Assembly: GCA_964371655.1 (NCBI GenBank)
Contig: CAYJOD010000007.1
Span: 81,145 to 145,144, forward strand
From: an uncultured Candidatus Binatia bacterium
GTDB lineage: Bacteria; Desulfobacterota; Binatia; HRBIN30
Direction of reading: 5' to 3'
DNA length: 64,000 nucleotides
In this document: positions 5,215 through 57,882 of the stretch, one piece after another
How positions within the stretch are numbered: the first letter of the stretch is position 1
Layout of the letters: every line of letters starts with the position of its first letter
Program-made: the position numbers and the translations under genes
The notes under the pieces: generated by a model
What the model saw: only the letters and a program-made list of their open reading frames with translations
Database searches by the model: none
Told to the model about the DNA's origin: nothing

Positions 5215-7365
5215 GTGAGCACTCACCTCCGCACCTGCAATCTCTGCGAAGCAATGTGCGGCCTCGTCGTCACGACCGAAGCGGCGCACGTCGTCGAAAT
5301 CAAGCCGGATCACGACGACCCGTTCAGCCGCGGTCATATCTGTCCCAAAGCGATCGCTCTCCAGGATCTACATGAAGACCCGGATCGCCTGCGTCATCCG
5401 CTGCGCCGGACGGCAGCGGGCTGGGAGCGGATCAGCTGGGACGATGCGTTTGCGGAGATTACGCAACAGGTCACCGCCATCCGCCGCGCCCATGGTCGTA
5501 ATGCGCTGGCGGTCTATCGCGGCAATCCGATCAGCCACAACTACGGGCTCGCCCTGTTTTCTCAGATTCTGGTTGAATCGCTGCGTACGGTGAACGTGTA
5601 CTCGTCCGGATCGGTGGACCAGTTTCCGGTGCAGCTCGCTTCGCTGCTCATGTTCGGCCATCAGTTCGTGTGGCCGGTGCCGGACATCGACCGCACCGAC
5701 TACTGGCTGATGCTGGGTGCCAACCCGGCGGTGTCCAACGGCAGCGCCATGACCGCGCCAGGGGTGACGAAACGCATTGCTGCCATCCGCGCGCGCGGCG
5801 GCAAGGTCGTTCTCATCGATCCGCGCCGCAACGAAACCGCCGCACTCGTCGACGAGCACCACTTCATTCGCCCGGGCGCCGATGCCTTGTTGCTGGCCGC
5901 CATGCTGCACACGCTGTCCACCGACGGAGCCATCAAGCTCGGACGCTTGGAAGGGCTGACAACCGGCAAGGCCGCGATTCACGTCATCGTCAAAGATTTC
6001 GCGCCGGAGCGCGTGGCGGCTGCCGTCGGCATCGAGGCGAGCACGATTCGCCGCTTGGCGCGCGAGTTCGCCGCCGCACCCACAGCGGTGAGTTACGGCC
6101 GCATGGGCACCTGCGCGCAGGAATTCGGCGCCACCACAAGCTGGCTCATCAACGTCCTCAACATCGTCACCGAGAATTTCGATCGCGCCGGCGGCGCCAT
6201 GTTCACGACCCCGGCGGTCGACATGCTCCTCAGTCGCCAGTTCGCCGGCAGCTATGCACGCCGGCACAGCCGCGTGCGCGGCCTGCCTGAGTTCGCCGAT
6301 GAGCTCCCCGTCGCCACCCTGGCCGATGAGATCGAAACGGCGGGAGCGGGTCAGATCCGTGGTCTGATCACGGTGGCGGGCAACCCGGTGCTGTCGGCGC
6401 CGAACGGAACCCGTCTCGATCGCGCTCTCGCGGAGCTGCCGTTCATGGTGTCGATCGACTACTACCTGAACGAAACGACGCGACACGCGAACATCATCCT
6501 GCCGCCGTTATCGCCGTTCGAGCGCGATCACTATGATGTCGTTTATGCGGCTCTCGCCGTGCACAACGTGGCCAAGTACAGCCCGGCGATTTTCGCCGCA
6601 GCGCCAGAGAGTCGCGACGATTGGGAGATCTGCCTCGAGGTCGCCATGCGCCTGCAGAAGGCGGACGGCTGGGTCGGCAACCTCGGCGCGCGCGCGCTGG
6701 GACCGTTGCTGCGCCGCCTCGGACCACGGCGAATGCTCAACCTCATGTTGCGTTTCGGGCCCTACGGCGATCGCTTCGGCTGGTCGGGCAAAGGGATCTC
6801 GGTGCAACGACTCCTACGTGAGCCGCACGGCATCGATCTCGGAGCGCTGCAGCCTTGTCTGCCACAACGGCTGGCGACCAAGGATGGGCACATCGATCTG
6901 GCCCCCGCCGTCTTTCGCGCCGACATTCAACGTCTGCAAAGCCGGCTGACCGCAAACGGCGTACGCACCAACGGCGACCTGCTGCTGATCGGGCGCCGGC
7001 AACTGCGCAGCAGCAACTCGTGGATGCACAACTGGGAGCGCCTGGTGCGCGGCCGTGAGCGCTGCACCCTGTTCATGCATCCGACCGACGCCGCGGCGCG
7101 TGGCGTGCACGACGAGCAGATGGTTCGCGTGACCTCGCGCACCGGTACGATCGAGGTTGCGGTAGCGATCACCGACGACATCATGCCCGGGGTCATCAGC
7201 CTGCCCCACGGCTGGGGGCACAACCGTGCCGGCACCCGGCTGCAGATCGCTGCGGCCCATCCGGGCGTGAGCCTCAACGACATTGCCGACGAAGATTTGC
7301 TGGATCCACTTTCGGGCACGGCCGCCTTGAACGGAATCCCCGCCACCGTCATCCCCGCGGGCTAG
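5215..7365 (+). CDS. Molybdopterin (bis-MGD) oxidoreductase family protein, MopB superfamily, substrate unknown
   Basis: N-terminal CNLCEAMCG Fe-S motif, about 717 aa. GTG start at 5215 preceded by AGAAGG. The ATG at 5089 lacks an RBS and lies upstream of the conserved N-terminus. Confidence 0.8.
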   Translation: MSTHLRTCNLCEAMCGLVVTTEAAHVVEIKPDHDDPFSRGHICPKAIALQDLHEDPDRLRHPLRRTAAGWERISWDDAFAEITQQVTAIRRAHGRNALAVYRGNPISHNYGLALFSQILVESLRTVNVYSSGSVDQFPVQLASLLMFGHQFVWPVPDIDRTDYWLMLGANPAVSNGSAMTAPGVTKRIAAIRARGGKVVLIDPRRNETAALVDEHHFIRPGADALLLAAMLHTLSTDGAIKLGRLEGLTTGKAAIHVIVKDFAPERVAAAVGIEASTIRRLAREFAAAPTAVSYGRMGTCAQEFGATTSWLINVLNIVTENFDRAGGAMFTTPAVDMLLSRQFAGSYARRHSRVRGLPEFADELPVATLADEIETAGAGQIRGLITVAGNPVLSAPNGTRLDRALAELPFMVSIDYYLNETTRHANIILPPLSPFERDHYDVVYAALAVHNVAKYSPAIFAAAPESRDDWEICLEVAMRLQKADGWVGNLGARALGPLLRRLGPRRMLNLMLRFGPYGDRFGWSGKGISVQRLLREPHGIDLGALQPCLPQRLATKDGHIDLAPAVFRADIQRLQSRLTANGVRTNGDLLLIGRRQLRSSNSWMHNWERLVRGRERCTLFMHPTDAAARGVHDEQMVRVTSRTGTIEVAVAITDDIMPGVISLPHGWGHNRAGTRLQIAAAHPGVSLNDIADEDLLDPLSGTAALNGIPATVIPAG

Positions 7366-7375
7366 CCAGATTTTT

Positions 7376-7459
7376 TCACCGCAGAGACGCGGAGACGCAG
7401 AGAGATCTATGGTTCGCAGAACATCTTTCTTCTCTGCGCCTCTGCGTCTCTGCGGTGAA
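7376..7459 (+). terminator. F4-family long perfect hairpin ttcaccgcagagacgcggagacgcagagag...ctctgcgcctctgcgtctctgcggtgaa between convergent genes
   Basis: A 30-bp inverted repeat begins 11 nt after the oxidoreductase stop and precedes the convergent thioesterase stop. It shares the CACAGAG motif family with 14871-15101, 17975-18103 and 28334-28636. Confidence 0.7.
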
Positions 7460-7478
7460 AAACTTTGTCCGATCGAGG

Positions 7479-7895
7479 TCAGTCAGCCCGGCTCTTCTCC
7501 CGTAGCTTGGCGTCGAACTTGGCGCGGTCGACGACGTAGCGGATGTGAATGCCTTCACCGACCTTCTCACGCTCGTCGAATGCGGTCACCTTGAACGTCA
7601 GCTTGCGGCCATCGACGGCGGCGAGCTCGGACGACACCCGCACCTGTGAGCCTACCGGGGTTGGCGCAAAGTGAGAGATCTCGTTGCGTGAGCCGACCGT
7701 CATCTGGGTTGGATCGAGATGGGCGGCGGCCAGGGTCGCCGAGACGATTTCCATCCTGGCAATCATGTCGGGCGTCGACCACACCGCCGGCAGCGCAACA
7801 CCGTCGGCCCCCTCACGCTCGGCGAGTGCGGCGGCGGTGACCTCGTGAGTGACCGTGTAGGTTCGTTCGGCAGCGATTCCCGGTTCGATGGACAT
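7479..7895 (-). CDS. Hotdog-fold thioesterase family protein
   Basis: 138-aa ORF with a hotdog-like pattern, similar in arrangement to FlK/4HBT-type thioesterases. Confidence 0.65.
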   Translation of the reverse strand: MSIEPGIAAERTYTVTHEVTAAALAEREGADGVALPAVWSTPDMIARMEIVSATLAAAHLDPTQMTVGSRNEISHFAPTPVGSQVRVSSELAAVDGRKLTFKVTAFDEREKVGEGIHIRYVVDRAKFDAKLREKSRAD

Positions 7896-8023
7896 GTCGA
7901 TCTCCCTTCTCGTATCTCGTATCTCGTTTCAGAAGAACCGGTAAGCCCCACGTCGATGCTAGGGTCCTGAGTCGTAAGTTCGCGACGAAAATGGAGCCTC
8001 GATAATTGCCATCGCCCTCACCC

Positions 8024-8253
8024 CGGCCCTCTCCCAGAGGGAGAAAGGCAAGCTCCCCTCTCCCTCTGGAGATTTTCGATAAATGCGAATGGAAAACAGG
8101 AAACGGGAAACCGGGGACCGAAAACTGGGCAATGCTCATGCAGAAAGGCCGGTTTTCCATTTTCGGTTTCCGGTTTCCTGTTTTTCATTCTCCGATCGAC
8201 GGCCGGTCGCGGAGATAATCGACAGTCTCTCTGGGAGAGGGTTAGGGTGAGGG
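8024..8253 (+). repeat. F1 palindromic element copy (core hairpin 8097-8190)
   Basis: ccctcaccccggccctctcccagagggaga...gaatggaaaacaggaaacgggaaaccgg...ccggtttcctgtttttcattc...gggagagggttagggtgaggg. Confidence 0.8.
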
Positions 8254-8372
8254 CTCTTCGTTCAGACGACCCGGTAGTTCTTCGGCGAACATCTGACTCA
8301 GGACACTAGCGCATCATGGCGGCCCAACGATGTCGCCTTGCCTTGAGCGTCGAATCCTGCAACCACGCCGCG

Positions 8373-23912: not shown

Positions 23913-24001
23913 CCCGGTTCACCGGGTCAGGCCGGCTTTGCCCGCCAATTGAGATGGAGCACCCTTCGATACGCCGCCAAGAGAAGGCGGCTACACCGCG
24001 C

Positions 24002-24304
24002 GAGAGGGGAGTGTCGATTTTCTCCGCAACAGCCCGCCGCTCGGAGAATGGAAAACAGGAAACCGGAAACCGAAAATGGAAAACCGGCCTTTCTGCGTGA
24101 GTATTGCCCAGTTTCCGGTGCCCGGTTTTCCATTTCCTGTTTTCCATTCGGCTTTATCGACAGTCTCAGAGGGCGGGGGTGAGGGATCTACTTTCCCACG
24201 CGGAGCTCCGCCACACGTCCGCCGCAGGGCTCCGGAGTGCGGGCCCATCCCCGCCGCCTCGGTTCCTCACCCTAACCCGCAAGTAATGCGGGCGAGGGAG
24301 CTGG
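24002..24304 (-). repeat. F1 element (24002-24185, inverted orientation) fused to F2 element (24176-24304)
   Basis: gagaggggagtgtcgattttctcc...ggagaatggaaaacagg...ccattcggctttatcgacagtctcagagggcgggggtgagggatc...cctcaccctaacccgcaagtaatgcgggcgagggagctgg. Confidence 0.8.
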
Positions 24305-26836: not shown

Positions 26837-27100
26837 ATGGATTCAGCGTATGTAACGACGAAGGGGCAACTTGTGGTGCCGGCGCGGCTGCGCCGCAAGT
26901 ACGGCATCACGGCGGGGACGCGAGTCCGCTTCCTGGAGCGTGATCGCGAGATCATCCTGCAACCTCTCACCCGCCAGTACATCCGCAGCGTCTGTGGCTT
27001 GCTCGCGGACGCGGGTCCAGCCACGCCGGAGTTATTGAAAGAGCGCACGCGGGAGCGACAACGAGAGGAGGCGCGAGGTGGCAAGTCCCGTCCTCGATAG
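26837..27100 (+). CDS. AbrB/MazE/SpoVT-type antitoxin
   Basis: GGGAGGAG RBS. MDSAYVTTKGQLVVPARLRRKYGI swapped-hairpin motif. Confidence 0.7.
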   Translation: MDSAYVTTKGQLVVPARLRRKYGITAGTRVRFLERDREIILQPLTRQYIRSVCGLLADAGPATPELLKERTRERQREEARGGKSRPR

Positions 27101-27476
27101 CTTTGCGTTGCTCGTGTTCCTGTTCAAAGAGAAGGGGCACGCCAAGCTGGTCGACGTATTCGACCAGGCCGCGGAAGATGACGAGTCTGTCTCGATCGCG
27201 GCACCGAACTGGGCTGAGGTGCGTTACATCGTGCAGCGCAAGGTGGGATTGGAGCGCTGGGGTGAGGTCCGCTCCACGATCCTGGCGCTTCCTCTGGAGG
27301 TAGTCGCCGTAGACCAAGCGCTGGCCGAAGCGGCCGGCGCCCTGAAGGCGACGAAGAAGATGTCGCTCGCCGATTGCTTCGCCGCCGCGCTGGCGCAGCA
27401 CAAGCAGGTCGCGGTGTACACCGGCGATCCGGAGTTCAAAGCGGTGGAGGACGAAGTTGAGGTCGTCTGGCTGTGA
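27078..27476 (+). CDS. PIN-domain (VapC-like) toxin
   Basis: GTG start overlaps the antitoxin 3' end. VLDSFALLVFL...D...AAALAQHKQVAVYTGDPEF has a PIN-like acidic residue pattern. Confidence 0.7.
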   Translation: MASPVLDSFALLVFLFKEKGHAKLVDVFDQAAEDDESVSIAAPNWAEVRYIVQRKVGLERWGEVRSTILALPLEVVAVDQALAEAAGALKATKKMSLADCFAAALAQHKQVAVYTGDPEFKAVEDEVEVVWL

Positions 27477-31539: not shown

Positions 31540-31736
31540 CCAGCTCCCCTGAGACTGTCGATAGATCCGAATGGAAAACAGGAAACGGAAAACCGGGAAC
31601 CGGAAACTGGGCAATGCTCACGCAGAAAGGCGGGTTTTCCATTCTCGGTTTCCGGTTTCCTGTTTTCCATTCTCCGAGCGACGGCCTGTTGCGGAGAAAA
31701 TCGACACTCCCCTCTGGGAGCGGGTTAGGGTGAGGG
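31540..31736 (+). repeat. F1 palindromic element copy
   Basis: gagactgtcgatagatccgaatggaaaacaggaaacggaaaaccgggaaccgg...ttccggtttcctgttttccattctccgagcgacggcctgttgcggagaaaatcgacactcccctctgggagcgggttagggtgaggg. Confidence 0.8.
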
Positions 31737-31795
31737 CTCTTCGCTTCAGGCGGCCCGGCATGTGTTCGGCGAACATCTGACTCAGGACAAACTAG

Positions 31796-33055: not shown

Positions 33056-33153
33056 GCGGCGCACCGCCAGACGATTTGGCGACGAGGGTCACGATATATT
33101 TGCCTGGACCAAGCTAGCAGAGTAACGTTCCCTCCGTCGGAGGAGGCCACGCC

Positions 33154-33432
33154 ATGATGGACCAAGAGACGGTCGAGAAGCGGAGAATTCTAAAGCAGTC
33201 TGGTTTCCTGCCGATCCCGAGCGTTCAGGTTCGCTTTAGCGTTGTTGAGCGGAAGATCATTTCCAATTCAATCGTGGATCGGATCAACACTGCCGATCTC
33301 GACAAATGGATATCGTCACCAACAACGCCACCGCCGGGATGGCAACTATGGATCGAGGCGAATCCACCTGAAGCCGCCGTGATCTTGGAGGCCGTGAACA
33401 GCGCCCTCAAGTCATTCTTCGAGAATGTTTAG
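33154..33432 (+). CDS. Hypothetical small protein (low-GC island, gene 1 of 3)
   Basis: GGAGGAGG RBS. 92 aa, no recognisable domain. GC clearly below flanks. Confidence 0.5.
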   Translation: MMDQETVEKRRILKQSGFLPIPSVQVRFSVVERKIISNSIVDRINTADLDKWISSPTTPPPGWQLWIEANPPEAAVILEAVNSALKSFFENV

Positions 33433-33964
33433 CAAGGCAGTATTGGCGATCCTGGCGCGTCGGATGCGGCAAATTGTTGATCGCGTCTCGTACAAGCGGA
33501 ACAAGCTCTTACGCCCATTTATCCCCGAGCGCGTGTGGTTACAGCGGGAGATTAGCCGTGTCTATCGGCGATACAATTGGAATGTTGAGGATGCGCGAAC
33601 TGCGAAGGAAAGAGGCATGCTCGATGCCGAACTGTCCATGGATATGGAGGATATGCAGGACAGACTCGATTCCATCGATACGGCGCACTGGGTATATCAG
33701 GCAGTCAGTAACAACGTTCGACGGCCACCCAAGCCGAGCGGTCATGAAAGCAGCGAGTTTTGGGAATATCGTAACGGTCTTTGTTTCCACGTACTCACGA
33801 ACGAAGGAAAGGCCGCGATCCGTCGCGAACTTCGCGAAGAGTTAGGCTGGCGTCGAGAGCAGCGAACCGCGTGGGCATTGGCCATTGGAGCGATCCTGTC
33901 GGCGGTAGCGGCACTCTTCGGAGCGTTAGCTGGAACCCTGATTGCGGGATTGGTGTGCAAATGA
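33425..33964 (+). CDS. Hypothetical protein with C-terminal TM anchor (low-GC island, gene 2 of 3)
   Basis: ATG overlaps the gene-1 stop by 8 nt. Basic N-terminus, C-terminal AIGAILSAVAALFGALAGTLIAGLV helix. Confidence 0.5.
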   Translation: MFSKAVLAILARRMRQIVDRVSYKRNKLLRPFIPERVWLQREISRVYRRYNWNVEDARTAKERGMLDAELSMDMEDMQDRLDSIDTAHWVYQAVSNNVRRPPKPSGHESSEFWEYRNGLCFHVLTNEGKAAIRRELREELGWRREQRTAWALAIGAILSAVAALFGALAGTLIAGLVCK

Positions 33965-34500
33965 CGGATATCGGTGAGGCGATAGACAAGGAATCGACGT
34001 CCCTGCGCGACATCCTAGTTCAGAAATTCAATTGGACGGATGAGTCGTTTGGCCACAGTGGGTTCGCCAGCCTTGGGTATCGCAAGAAGCAGCAGCTCTT
34101 CAGTCCGCGCAAGACATTCGTTCAACGATTGATCGGCGGAAGCTCGGGCCGGGCGATCCCTGTCGCCGAAGTGATCGCGGTCGGTAGTCTTCTGAAGTTT
34201 TCGATTCCCGCCGCAGAGGCTCGGGGCACTGCCGACTTTTCTTGGTGGCGCGGCATGTTCGACCGAGAAGTGCGCTACTCGACTATCTCGCACGGCTTGG
34301 TGTTTGATCGCTGGGTCGCATTTCGAGGATTACAGACGGGTGGATTTGACTTCGATGTGTCGTACCTAGATGGCGATGTTGCCGCCAGAATCCCGACGAC
34401 GGTCCTAGTTGCCGTCGACTGGATTCGATTGGCGCCCAACGAAGCCGCCCATCGGAGCCTTGTCGAATTGTTCAAGTCAATTGGCACCGGCGTGCCGTGA
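33961..34500 (+). CDS. Hypothetical protein (low-GC island, gene 3 of 3)
   Basis: ATGA overlap with gene 2. 179 aa, no recognisable domain. Confidence 0.5.
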   Translation: MTDIGEAIDKESTSLRDILVQKFNWTDESFGHSGFASLGYRKKQQLFSPRKTFVQRLIGGSSGRAIPVAEVIAVGSLLKFSIPAAEARGTADFSWWRGMFDREVRYSTISHGLVFDRWVAFRGLQTGGFDFDVSYLDGDVAARIPTTVLVAVDWIRLAPNEAAHRSLVELFKSIGTGVP

Positions 34501-34762
34501 CGCAGGACGGGAGAATGAGCAGCTTATTGAGCCTCGTGAAATATGTTGACAGCGAACCGCCCTTCGATACGCCGCCAAGCACCAAGCTCTAGCAGGGAGG
34601 GGCATTGGGGAAGGTGGATCGTCATGGAGATCTGGCGGCGTAGGAACAACCCACGTAAGTCCGCAGTCGATTTCAAGAGAGCTCTGTGAGTCACTCGCTC
34701 ATAAGACACCACGATCGAGTTACGTGAGATACGTTCGTCCCCAAGTGCCTTGCCGCTTGCGT

Positions 34763-35194
34763 TCACGCCGCCTTGTCGATCTCGACGCGCAGCACTAGGC
34801 CGAGCGCACTCAAGACAGCCTCGACCTGATCGAGCTTCGAGGCGTGTCGCAGATCCAAGACACGATCGACCTGCGGCAAGTGCCACCCCAGCCGGCGCGC
34901 GAGCTCCGCCTTGCCCATGCGGCGATGGCGCATTTCCTGATAGGCAGCCAACTTCATGCACGACAGTGGAGAGGGGCGGGTGACTCGCGTTCCCTTCTTC
35001 GTACGACTCGGCACCGGCAAGTCTCTGCCATCCCTGACGTAGGATGCGAGGACGGTTTCGAGTGCGTCGACCGCTCTCTGTAGAGCCTCGGACTCACCCT
35101 CTCCCTCGGTGACTCCCGGCAGGTCCGCAAACGTGACGGTTACGACGCCGCGCTTGTCCGACTCCAGCCTGACGGGGTATTCAAAGTTGCGCAT
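34763..35194 (-). CDS. hicB: HicB-family antitoxin with C-terminal HTH
   Basis: RNase-H-like N-domain, then KAELARRLGWHLPQVDRVL HTH. Lies downstream of hicA. Confidence 0.75.
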   Translation of the reverse strand: MRNFEYPVRLESDKRGVVTVTFADLPGVTEGEGESEALQRAVDALETVLASYVRDGRDLPVPSRTKKGTRVTRPSPLSCMKLAAYQEMRHRRMGKAELARRLGWHLPQVDRVLDLRHASKLDQVEAVLSALGLVLRVEIDKAA

Positions 35195-35205: not shown

Positions 35206-35394
35206 CTAATCGTCCAACAACCCCAGGTCTCGCTTGATGGCGCGCTCGGTGCCCTTTGCCAATTCGCGCTTACCGCCATGCATCGGCAGTGTTGAAACGC
35301 GGCCGGCGAGACGAACGGTGAGGTGTCCACCTTTGCCGGGCTCGAAGTTCGCGCCCTGCTTCGTCAGCCAGCGCTTGAGCTCGGCGCTCGTCAT
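35206..35394 (-). CDS. hicA: HicA-family mRNA interferase toxin
   Basis: MTSAELKRWLTKQGANFEPGKGGHLTVRLAGRVSTLPMHGGKRELAKGTERAIKRDLGL. Confidence 0.8.
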   Translation of the reverse strand: MTSAELKRWLTKQGANFEPGKGGHLTVRLAGRVSTLPMHGGKRELAKGTERAIKRDLGLLDD

Positions 35395-35559
35395 GGAACG
35401 AGAATAACAGTTCTGTTGTGCAAGGCAACACAACTGTTGCGTGGGCAGCGGAGATCCAGCGGCATCGAATCGATTTCGTGGGACCTCGGCATCGCGGTCC
35501 CACGGAATCGCAGCCGCTCCCTTGATCCGGCGGTCGTCGGGAACGTACTATGGCGCGCC

Positions 35560-36114
35560 ATGCTGATCACAATCTCGGGGACACCTGGAAGCGGCAAGAC
35601 GACGGTGGCGCGGTTGCTCGCCAAGCAATTGGGGATCGCGCACGTCTATGCCGGTGACCTTTACCGCCGTGCCGCCGAGGCGCGTGGGCTGTCCCTCGAA
35701 GCCTTCAACCGCCTGGCGGAGAAGGATCACTCGATCGATCGCGAGCTCGACGCCAGGATGGCCGAGTATGCGCGCCGTGGCGGCGTCATCCTCGAAGGCC
35801 GCTTGGCTGCCTTTCTCGCTTTGCAAGAAGACACCGACGCCTTGAAGGTCTGGCTCACGGCCAGCGACGGCGTGCGCGCCCAGCGGGTCTCGCAACGCGA
35901 GGGCGGTGATCAGCGCGAGCAGCTGCGCGTCAACGACGAACGCCAGCGCTCCGATGCGCGGCGCTACCTTGAGATCTACGGATTCGATCTCGAAGACATC
36001 TCCATCTACGATCTCATCCTCTATAGTGATGACCAGTCGCCCGAATCCTTGGCCGAGACCATCGCGCGCCAAGCGCGCCAAAGGTTCGGCCCGCAGGCGG
36101 CGACGAACGAATGA
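35560..36114 (+). CDS. Cytidylate kinase-like (archaeal-type CMP kinase family) P-loop protein
   Basis: MLITISGTPGSGKTTVARLLA P-loop. 184 aa. Stop overlaps the rel start. Confidence 0.7.
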   Translation: MLITISGTPGSGKTTVARLLAKQLGIAHVYAGDLYRRAAEARGLSLEAFNRLAEKDHSIDRELDARMAEYARRGGVILEGRLAAFLALQEDTDALKVWLTASDGVRAQRVSQREGGDQREQLRVNDERQRSDARRYLEIYGFDLEDISIYDLILYSDDQSPESLAETIARQARQRFGPQAATNE

Positions 36115-41158: not shown

Positions 41159-41497
41159 CTACTGCCCAGGTGGCAATCCGAGCGCAACGCCCAAGGCGCG
41201 ATTGAAATGAGCTAGCTTCGGGGGTGCGAGAGTCCCGACGAACTGCGTCAGCTTGCTCTTGAACATCAGTGTAAGGAAGTCGCAGCGGATCGCACAAATC
41301 CTTGGCAGACCGTCTTCGGGGCCCAAGACGACTTCCGTGGAGAGCCCGAGGACGTCACTGTAAACTGGGGCACATATGACCGTTGATACATCGTCGTGTC
41401 GGGCAATGAAGGCTCTCGAGGCGACGACGTAGAAACCCGGCTTGTCTCCTCTTTCGGCGACTCGTTCGCGCGTGCGGTAAATTTCGCCGCGATTCAC
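41159..41497 (-). CDS. MazF/PemK-family toxin
   Basis: GEIYRTRERVAERGDKPGFYVVASRAF...VICAPVYSD pattern. Confidence 0.65.
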   Translation of the reverse strand: MNRGEIYRTRERVAERGDKPGFYVVASRAFIARHDDVSTVICAPVYSDVLGLSTEVVLGPEDGLPRICAIRCDFLTLMFKSKLTQFVGTLAPPKLAHFNRALGVALGLPPGQ

Positions 41498-41730
41498 GAG
41501 CGTGCCTGAGCGGCCACCAGTGCTTTAGCCTGCCGATTCAGACGAGCCCGGTTTCGCCGCAGAATCTCGCCCTCCTTCGCTTCCTGGCTGCGGCGACTTT
41601 CGCGCTCCGCCAACTCACGGACCGCGAGACGGATTCCGGCCGAGCGATTACGGATACGCGGTGAGGTCTTGGTCAACTCCTCAAGCAAACCCAGAGTATC
41701 TTCATCGATGGTCACGGCGATGGTCTTCAT
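41494..41730 (-). CDS. Ribbon-helix-helix (CopG-like) antitoxin
   Basis: MKTIAVTIDEDTLGLLEEL RHH N-terminus. 4-nt overlap with the toxin. Confidence 0.65.
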   Translation of the reverse strand: MKTIAVTIDEDTLGLLEELTKTSPRIRNRSAGIRLAVRELAERESRRSQEAKEGEILRRNRARLNRQAKALVAAQARS

Positions 41731-57585: not shown

Positions 57586-57882
57586 CCTCTCCCGCAACAC
57601 CTGCGGGAGAGGAGACTGTCGATGTTCTCCGCAACAGGCCGCCACTCGGAGAACGGAAAATCAGAAACCGGAAACCGAAAATGGAAAACCGGCCTTTCTG
57701 CCTGAGCATTGCCCAGTTTCCGGTTTCCTGTTTTTTGTTTTCGGTTTTGCATTCGCGTTTATCGACACCCTCAGAGGGTGGGGGTGAGGGATCCAATTCA
57801 TCGCAACCTTTGCTGCGCCCATCCGCGCCGCGTCGGTTCCCTCACCCTAACCCCCCACAAGTAATGCGGGCGGGAGCTGGCC
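57586..57882 (-). repeat. F1 element (57586-57790, inverted) fused to F2 element (57780-57882), inside the uptake gene cluster
   Basis: Same core as 1342-1446 and same F2 tail as 24176-24304. Confidence 0.8.

Follow-up and report, generated by a model that had tools for sequence, protein, structure and literature searches.

A GC-poor three-gene block beside hicBA in a Candidatus Binatia bacterium, and the apparently new protein family of its third gene

Three overlapping open reading frames (ORFs), designated ORF1 to ORF3, lie on the + strand at positions 33154–34500 of a 64-kb stretch of DNA (the window, to which all coordinates refer) from an uncultured Candidatus Binatia bacterium. The one substantive finding made on this block concerns ORF3, which represents a rare, unannotated protein family. 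Its fold is predicted with confidence and has no close match among PDB structures, and its genes lie repeatedly beside conflict systems.

Layout, composition and synteny of the block

ORF1 (33154..33432, + strand) encodes an acidic protein (isoelectric point, pI, 5.3) of 92 amino acids (aa), or of 91 aa if the ATG at 33157 is used, and public gene calls vary likewise between 91 and 92 aa. A Shine-Dalgarno sequence, GGAGGAGG (33139..33146, + strand), was read from the sequence 7 nt upstream of the start codon (ATG, 33154), which bears out the strong ribosome-binding site of the original prediction. ORF2 (33425..33964, + strand, 179 aa) overlaps ORF1 by 8 nt (ATGTTTAG), and the start of ORF3 (33961..34500, + strand, 179 aa) overlaps the stop codon of ORF2 by 4 nt (ATGA). 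These are the ORFs, lengths and overlaps that had been predicted, with the reservation that the 8-nt coupling depends on the long form of ORF2, because most public gene calls start ORF2 at an alternative ATG at 33617 (115 aa, preceded by AAGGAAAGAGG) and a 179-aa protein from ATG 33425 was called on two short contigs only (L006 and L007). The long form is plausible, since the guanine-plus-cytosine (GC) periodicity of its first 64 codons (0.56/0.42/0.63) is coding-like. In 2000 shuffles of the block, stop-free stretches of at least 90 codons covered on average 24% of it and never reached the observed 99.8%, indicating that the tiling of ORFs was not due to chance; the genes, at least ORF3, were shown to be real.

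The ORF2 protein has a basic N-terminus (residues 1–64, pI 11.5, 17 K+R), an acidic middle part and a single strong C-terminal hydrophobic helix (residues ~148–178; Kyte-Doolittle 19-residue maximum of 2.32 at residue 151), in agreement with the basic N-terminus and single membrane anchor that had been predicted. The codons of the anchor (residues 148–179, TAWALAIGAILSAVAALFGALAGTLIAGLVCK) occupy 33866..33961 (+ strand). In a word-indexed search of 5.8 billion proteins ORF2 retrieved only itself, a weak negative because the same kind of index missed a 55%-identical relative of ORF3 (see below). A match of ORF2 to an RNA recognition motif (RRM)-like stretch of PDB entry 9l5r_Ci (E 4e-4, 23 bits) had no support from the Pfam RRM and was judged to be chance, and matches of ORF1 in the PDB all had E >= 0.085. 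Neither ORF1 nor ORF2 matched plasmids, phages or IMG/VR contigs.

Upstream of ORF1, the + strand showed no sigma-70-like promoter. Promoters, terminators, Rfam matches and significant RNA structures were not detected in the leader or in the spacer between ORF3 and the convergent hicB gene (34501..34762, no strand assigned; z = -1.5 for the spacer, non-significant). A candidate anti-Shine-Dalgarno hairpin (CCCTCC...GGAGG) in the leader was dropped, being unused by the minimum-free-energy fold (z = -1.0).

The GC content of the block was 55.5%, the lowest of any 1347-bp stretch in the window (mean 63.7%, standard deviation 2.2). The GC content at third codon positions was 0.64, 0.60 and 0.66 for ORF1, ORF2 and ORF3, and 0.79±0.06 for 19 neighbouring genes; values as low were found elsewhere only in a PemK toxin-antitoxin (TA) pair (41159–41730; 0.66). 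The predicted contrast with flanks of ~67% GC held for mgtC (66.9%) and was smaller for hicBA (63%), and GC content, overall and at third codon positions, sets the block apart from the average of its surroundings.

The best species-representative relatives of the RelA protein of the window were 80–82% identical and came from Candidatus Binatia. Across 80 Binatia-type relA loci, cmk-relA and the downstream genes (RidA, L28, CoaD, PGI and MutL) were syntenic, and none of the 80 carried ORF1–3, hicAB or mgtC upstream of cmk. In the two closest relatives (L010 and L011) DegT-HldE-YicC lay directly upstream of cmk-relA; none of these three was found anywhere in the window, and compared with both relatives synteny broke at 35434–35560, between hicA and cmk. 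Thus, the whole left flank (thiamine pyrophosphate enzyme, mgtC, cassette and hicBA) is rearranged relative to these two. The borders of an insertion could not be mapped, because the closest relatives were only ~80% identical in RelA. These comparisons showed a foreign composition and a lack of synteny for the block, which lies at a synteny breakpoint. The horizontally acquired islet of the original prediction was upheld in these respects, its atypical composition and its absence from the syntenic position being those of a genomic islet, but not in its mobility signatures: neither an integrase, a transposase nor a transfer RNA (tRNA) gene marking an islet was found (the tRNA scan covered the window), and no direct or inverted repeats above chance-length matches flanked the block.

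The repeat debris of family F5 that had been noticed at 34548–34600 proved to be a match of only 26 nt (34554–34579, within the ORF3-hicB spacer), 88% identical to repeats at 23956 and 26097 (family D17). A further repeat family of ~190 nt, resembling a miniature inverted-repeat transposable element (MITE), was present in both orientations and at 80–94% identity (1323–1510, 8068–8255, 24003–24193, 31546–31737 and 57603–57798), one copy being intergenic just upstream of mgtC, ~1.4 kb left of the cassette. Against Rfam it gave only a sub-threshold, palindrome-type match (mir-191, both strands).

The exact ORF3 protein was encoded by 23 public contigs, all from one set of metagenomes and 99.7–100% identical across the region, with one single-nucleotide polymorphism in ORF3, which was synonymous. 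These contigs therefore represent one population.

A block of this kind might be the decaying remnant of a mobile element (a prophage, an integrative and conjugative element or an integron-like array), in which ORF3 would be surviving cargo and ORF1 and ORF2 functionless frames, degraded or de novo. The repeat remnant and the MITE-like repeats nearby are consistent with such an origin, as are the disagreement of gene callers over the start of ORF2, the lack of relatives of ORF1 and ORF2 as far as searched, and the truncated or frameshifted state of three genes at loci of ORF3 relatives (P0011, P0012 and the HTH_73 gene of L102; see below). However, three intact frames that tile exactly and have coding-type GC periodicity, the identity of the 23 contigs without a disrupted variant, and the failure to find PHROG or IMG/VR matches, an integrase, transposase or tRNA, or flanking repeats all argue against decay, and we consider this origin improbable.

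The ORF3 family and its predicted fold

In a word-indexed search ORF3 retrieved only itself, and a repeat with the family profile added only P0013 and P0014. An exhaustive HMMER scan of 1.84 billion representatives detected 10 credible relatives (P0008, P0009, P0010, P0011, P0012, P0013, P0014, P0015, P0016 and P0018), one of which, P0008, is 55% identical to ORF3 (E 6e-51). One more locus of the family, L098, came from a pattern scan of Joint Genome Institute (JGI) metagenomes. P0017 and P0019 were discarded as spurious matches to short repeated motifs. As 10 relatives had escaped the first search, an “orphan” diagnosis from a word-indexed search alone is unreliable for rare families. The ~11 relatives lay on unrelated contigs, a patchy, mobile-type distribution that applies to ORF3 only. 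On these sequence comparisons, ORF3 is a member of a rare, previously undescribed and unannotated protein family.

Family-wide motifs (ORF3 numbering) comprised W25, F30, P49 and L78-K79-F80 in the first half, and D92, W96-R-G-x-F-D-R-E103, W118, G128-F-D-F131, A-R-I-P145-T and W154-I in the second. The earlier statement that none of the three proteins has a recognisable motif was therefore right for library domains and wrong for ORF3. Aromatic residues occupied 10 of the 33 well-conserved columns, and the only conserved polar residues were K79, D92, R102 and E103. The many conserved aromatics and only four conserved polar residues are suggestive of a binding protein rather than an enzyme.

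AlphaFold modelled ORF3 with a predicted local distance difference test score (pLDDT) of 32 from the single sequence, and with a pLDDT of 89.4 and a predicted template modelling score (pTM) of 0.82 when an 11-sequence alignment was supplied. Since the model became confident only with the alignment, the co-variation within the family was taken to be genuine. The model contained N-terminal helices, a beta-hairpin, a helix (residues 91–103) carrying W-R-G-x-F-D-R-E, and four strands (residues 118–158). Thus modelled, the fold is predicted to be alpha/beta, a decorated SH3-like small beta-barrel with no close solved relative: a Foldseek search of the model against the PDB and BFVD returned nothing at E ≤ 1e-3, and neither ORF3 nor its family profile matched PDB sequences. 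Of the checks proposed with the original prediction, profile searches of Pfam and PADLOC gave no match and structure prediction gave this model.

Genomic neighbours of the ORF3 relatives

The relatives fell into two clades, of which clade A, with eight loci, holds the ORF3 of the window. At least four of the eight had PADLOC-recognised systems within a few kb, in two cases directly adjacent, which is a plain co-occurrence. At L092, P0008 was preceded by a gene for a 104-aa protein of no assigned function and accompanied by PIN, an IS1595 transposase, RhuM and a type I restriction-modification (R-M) system with a HEC-01A/B pair, itself complete, inside it (E 2e-171 and 7e-66). At L103, P0012, which is N-terminally short (128 aa), had a PIN pair upstream. 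A complete PDC-M41 system (6698–8341; PDC-M41A, E 8e-21; PDC-M41B, a DUF5131 protein, E 1e-114) began 147 bp 3′ of it on the same strand, and beyond this system came a PDC-S44-like gene and one for the S subunit of a type I R-M system. P0011 (L097) was found with PDC-S32/AbiJ_NTD4, an N6/N4 methyltransferase, rve_3, SNase and an ImmA/IrrE protein with a helix-turn-helix (HTH) domain. P0013 (L093) lay directly downstream of the C-terminus of a Snf2-type helicase, with DrmD-like and HKD+Snf2 matches. L098 had a DUF4160/DUF2442 pair downstream and a weak SIR2_2-like ORF upstream (E 0.0075, below the cutoff), and P0009 (L094) had a group II intron reverse transcriptase. The defence-type context of the original prediction thus holds for homologues of ORF3 elsewhere, which lie amid defence, TA and mobile genes, while nothing shows a defence function.

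Clade B (P0014, P0015, P0016 and P0018) was confined to one lineage and to one site, the gap between atpA and atpG. Here an upstream HTH_73 gene (E 3e-14) overlapped the ORF3-like gene in a TA-like layout. At L100, a HicB_N-HTH_73 fusion (524–997) lay directly upstream of P0016, and no hicA was present within the 2976-nt contig. Identity between these loci was 90% for atpG, 54–60% for HTH_73 and 30–37% for the ORF3-like proteins, a tempo of divergence that conflict genes, or the replacement of cassettes, typically show. Genes for a Zeta toxin, a methyltransferase, GmrSD, Mrr and Fic were stacked at the same site.

The loci concerned were L090 (9781–12031), L091, L099 (1–1988), L100 (524–2974) and L102 (1–4531). 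The atpA-atpG gap appears to be a cassette hotspot in the ATP-synthase operon, where HicB-like, EamA and DUF6338 genes were also seen; at L099, duplicated fragments of the atpA C-terminus and the atpG N-terminus (around 840–980) stood between cassettes. At L102, a HicB N-domain 76% identical to that of L100 was encoded by a separate 71-aa gene ~1.6 kb 3′ of the ORF3-like gene. Nothing useful was found in the literature on HTH_73 (PF24718). By hhalign, no relationship was detected between ORF1 and HTH_73, between HTH_73 and either the 104-aa protein of L092 or a 72-aa protein of L094, or between ORF2 and the 104-aa protein.

In the window, the hicB antitoxin gene (34763..35194, - strand, 143 aa; HicB N-domain and C-terminal HTH) ends 263 bp from ORF3 and is convergent to it, and is followed by the hicA toxin gene (35206..35394, - strand, 62 aa in public calls). 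HicA matched HicA_toxin (E 1e-8, 35.6 bits; cutoff 27 bits), HicB matched HicB_lk_antitox just below the cutoff (25.3 bits), and HicB-like_2 was among its precomputed matches. The hicA-hicB pair that had been predicted on the opposite strand was confirmed by these domain matches as complete and canonical. Its HicB N-domain was 31% identical to that of the L100 fusion, and an HTH_73 identity for its C-terminus was ruled out by hhalign. Further TA modules within the same 20 kb were a MazE-like gene with PIN (26837–27476) and PemK with a 78-aa partner (41159–41730); the PemK gene call was present in L001 and L003 and not in L002.

A functional tie between ORF3 and hicBA, as a third component or as an alternative toxin under HicB control, is brought to mind by the HicB_N-HTH_73 fusion without hicA directly upstream of P0016, the HicB-like gene 1.6 kb from P0018, and the short distance between hicB and ORF3 in the window. 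The two units of the window are convergent, though, hicA-hicB is complete by itself and the window HicB does not end in HTH_73. Most clade-A relatives lacked a HicB nearby, and the cases with HicB were confined to one lineage and one site. HicA and HicB were moreover reported to form strictly unique pairs (Makarova, Wolf & Koonin 2009; PMC2701414). We regard such a tie as very improbable and, like an origin by decay of a mobile element, less likely than the explanations considered below.

A possible conflict-type cassette

Our best-supported though tentative interpretation, held with less than even confidence, sees the block as a cassette of the conflict type (TA-like or defence-like) that was acquired horizontally; ORF3 would be its conserved component and ORF1 and ORF2 private partners. 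It draws on the evidence for a real operon of foreign composition, on the rarity of the ORF3 family, on its defence, TA and mobile contexts, on the TA-like overlap with HTH_73 and on the tempo of divergence in clade B. The cassette would then be an accessory “genetic conflict” operon in a variable spot beside hicBA, in a genome that also carries MazE-PIN and PemK, and ORF1–3 would be translated from one messenger RNA. ORF3 would be a cytoplasmic effector or toxin-position protein of ~19 kDa, in which a helical N-terminal part is modelled as packing on the SH3-like small beta-barrel. Small beta-barrel domains usually bind macromolecules, and ORF3 may likewise act through binding, its target being a macromolecule of the cell or of an invader, rather than as a classical enzyme. 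The small acidic ORF1 and the tail-anchored ORF2 would be lineage-private partners, possibly as neutraliser or regulator and as membrane tether or co-effector. Any toxic or defensive activity of the cassette, and these roles of ORF1 and ORF2, are our inference.

The cassette resembles type II TA systems (PMC2701414) in its small, overlapping, co-oriented genes behind one Shine-Dalgarno sequence, and the ORF3 family resembles them in its patchy occurrence in variable regions beside other TA modules. Small adjacent co-oriented genes, a non-uniform mobile distribution, presence on plasmids and phages and an HTH or ribbon-helix-helix DNA-binding domain in one partner are comparative features by which TA systems are predicted, as given for HicAB in that study; growth arrest by the toxin and its neutralisation by the cognate partner define such a system. 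In clade B, where HTH_73 or HicB_N-HTH_73 precedes and overlaps the ORF3-like gene, the likeness extends to type II systems with HTH antitoxins and partner swapping. The window cassette differs in having three genes, not two, and in having no gene with a recognisable DNA-binding domain; an HTH partner was seen in the atpA-atpG lineage alone. ORF3 falls into none of the known toxin superfamilies, and searches of plasmids and phages did not detect its family. HicAB adjoins the cassette, and in one lineage domains of the HicB type are met repeatedly close to family members, whereas ORF1–3 lack HicA (double-stranded RNA-binding domain-like) and HicB (RNase H-like) domains and lie convergent to it on the opposite strand. 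The PADLOC-DB candidates HEC-01, PDC-M41, PDC-S32 and PDC-S44 are neighbours of ORF3 relatives and, like the ORF3 family, short, unannotated and known only by association; adjacency is not membership, however, and ORF1–3 and the 12 family members match no model of v2.0.0. With no PHROGs match and no viral contig, ORF1–3 do not look like a phage-derived gene set.

Several results weigh against a conflict-type cassette. ORF1, ORF2 and ORF3 gave no match in Pfam, PADLOC, NCBIfam or PHROGs, nor did 12 ORF3-family members in the same libraries, PADLOC v2.0.0 returning no match at E ≤ 1 for any of them; as a defence system recognisable by model match, the block therefore fell short of the original prediction. 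Pfam revealed neither an HTH nor a ribbon-helix-helix domain in ORF1 or ORF2, and ORF1 has no detectable DNA-binding domain. The few conserved polar residues of the ORF3 family leave no evident catalytic site. Searches of plasmids and phages (tblastn of PLSDB and INPHARED) and scans of IMG/VR contigs turned up no member of the family, an absence atypical for TA or defence genes. When ORF1 and ORF2 were compared by phmmer --max with all six-frame ORFs in the ±2 kb around each ORF3 relative, there was no match, and an all-vs-all comparison within ±3 kb in clade A found no conserved neighbour except the ORF3-like gene itself. By these comparisons ORF1 and ORF2 are not conserved partners of ORF3 and the trio is not a conserved module, contrary to what had been proposed. 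The pairing with HTH_73 counts as a single observation, since all its cases share a lineage and a chromosomal site. Finally, the near-identity of the 23 contigs leaves no variation from which selection (the ratio of non-synonymous to synonymous substitution, dN/dS) could be gauged.

The main rival explanation, a real possibility if a doubtful one, is neutral or niche-specific accessory cargo unrelated to defence or addiction. The block would then have been transferred horizontally into a recombination-permissive spot, ORF3 being perhaps a small protein with a binding or regulatory role, and its occurrence beside defence and TA genes would only reflect the piling up of accessory genes in the same variable regions. 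In keeping with this, no defence or TA model was matched, the upstream partner of the ORF3-like gene differed at every clade-A locus, one relative (P0010, L095/L096) lay beside ordinary TetR/RND efflux genes, the conserved residues were mostly aromatic core positions, and the defence co-occurrence is a plain count. Cargo of this kind is harder to reconcile with the PADLOC-recognised systems that lie within a few kb at four or more of the eight clade-A loci and are directly adjacent at two, with the TA-like overlap of an HTH_73 or HicB-HTH_73 gene with the ORF3-like gene, and with the extreme divergence of ORF3-like proteins at a fixed site.

A bolder version of the conflict-type interpretation, which we think unlikely, would make the ORF3 family a new fold of effectors or toxins, in which a helical domain sits on an SH3-like barrel and a helix carries W-R-G-x-F-D-R-E, of a partner-swapping TA or abortive-infection family. 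It would be paired with an HTH_73/HicB-type antitoxin in one lineage, within the cassette hotspot of the ATP-synthase operon, and with the private acidic ORF1 and tail-anchored ORF2 in the window, as a new three-component variant.

Taken together, the observations of the original prediction were confirmed and its interpretation found partial support: a foreign origin, an accessory character and a fitting neighbourhood apply to the block, but the trio is not conserved and no defence function was shown. Were the block only neutral cargo, it would be an ordinary case of orphan genes in a variable region. The HicB_N-HTH_73 protein of L100, encoded without hicA, would depart from the strict pairing that has been reported for HicA and HicB; if ORF3 is an effector, HicB- or HTH_73-type regulators can pair with a partner other than HicA, contrary to that report. 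The cassette offers a modest lead towards a new protein of conflict systems rather than a proven means of defence, and with 179 aa and a confident model ORF3 is a short, testable candidate. If it is an effector, a new and very rare protein fold would join the TA and defence repertoire.

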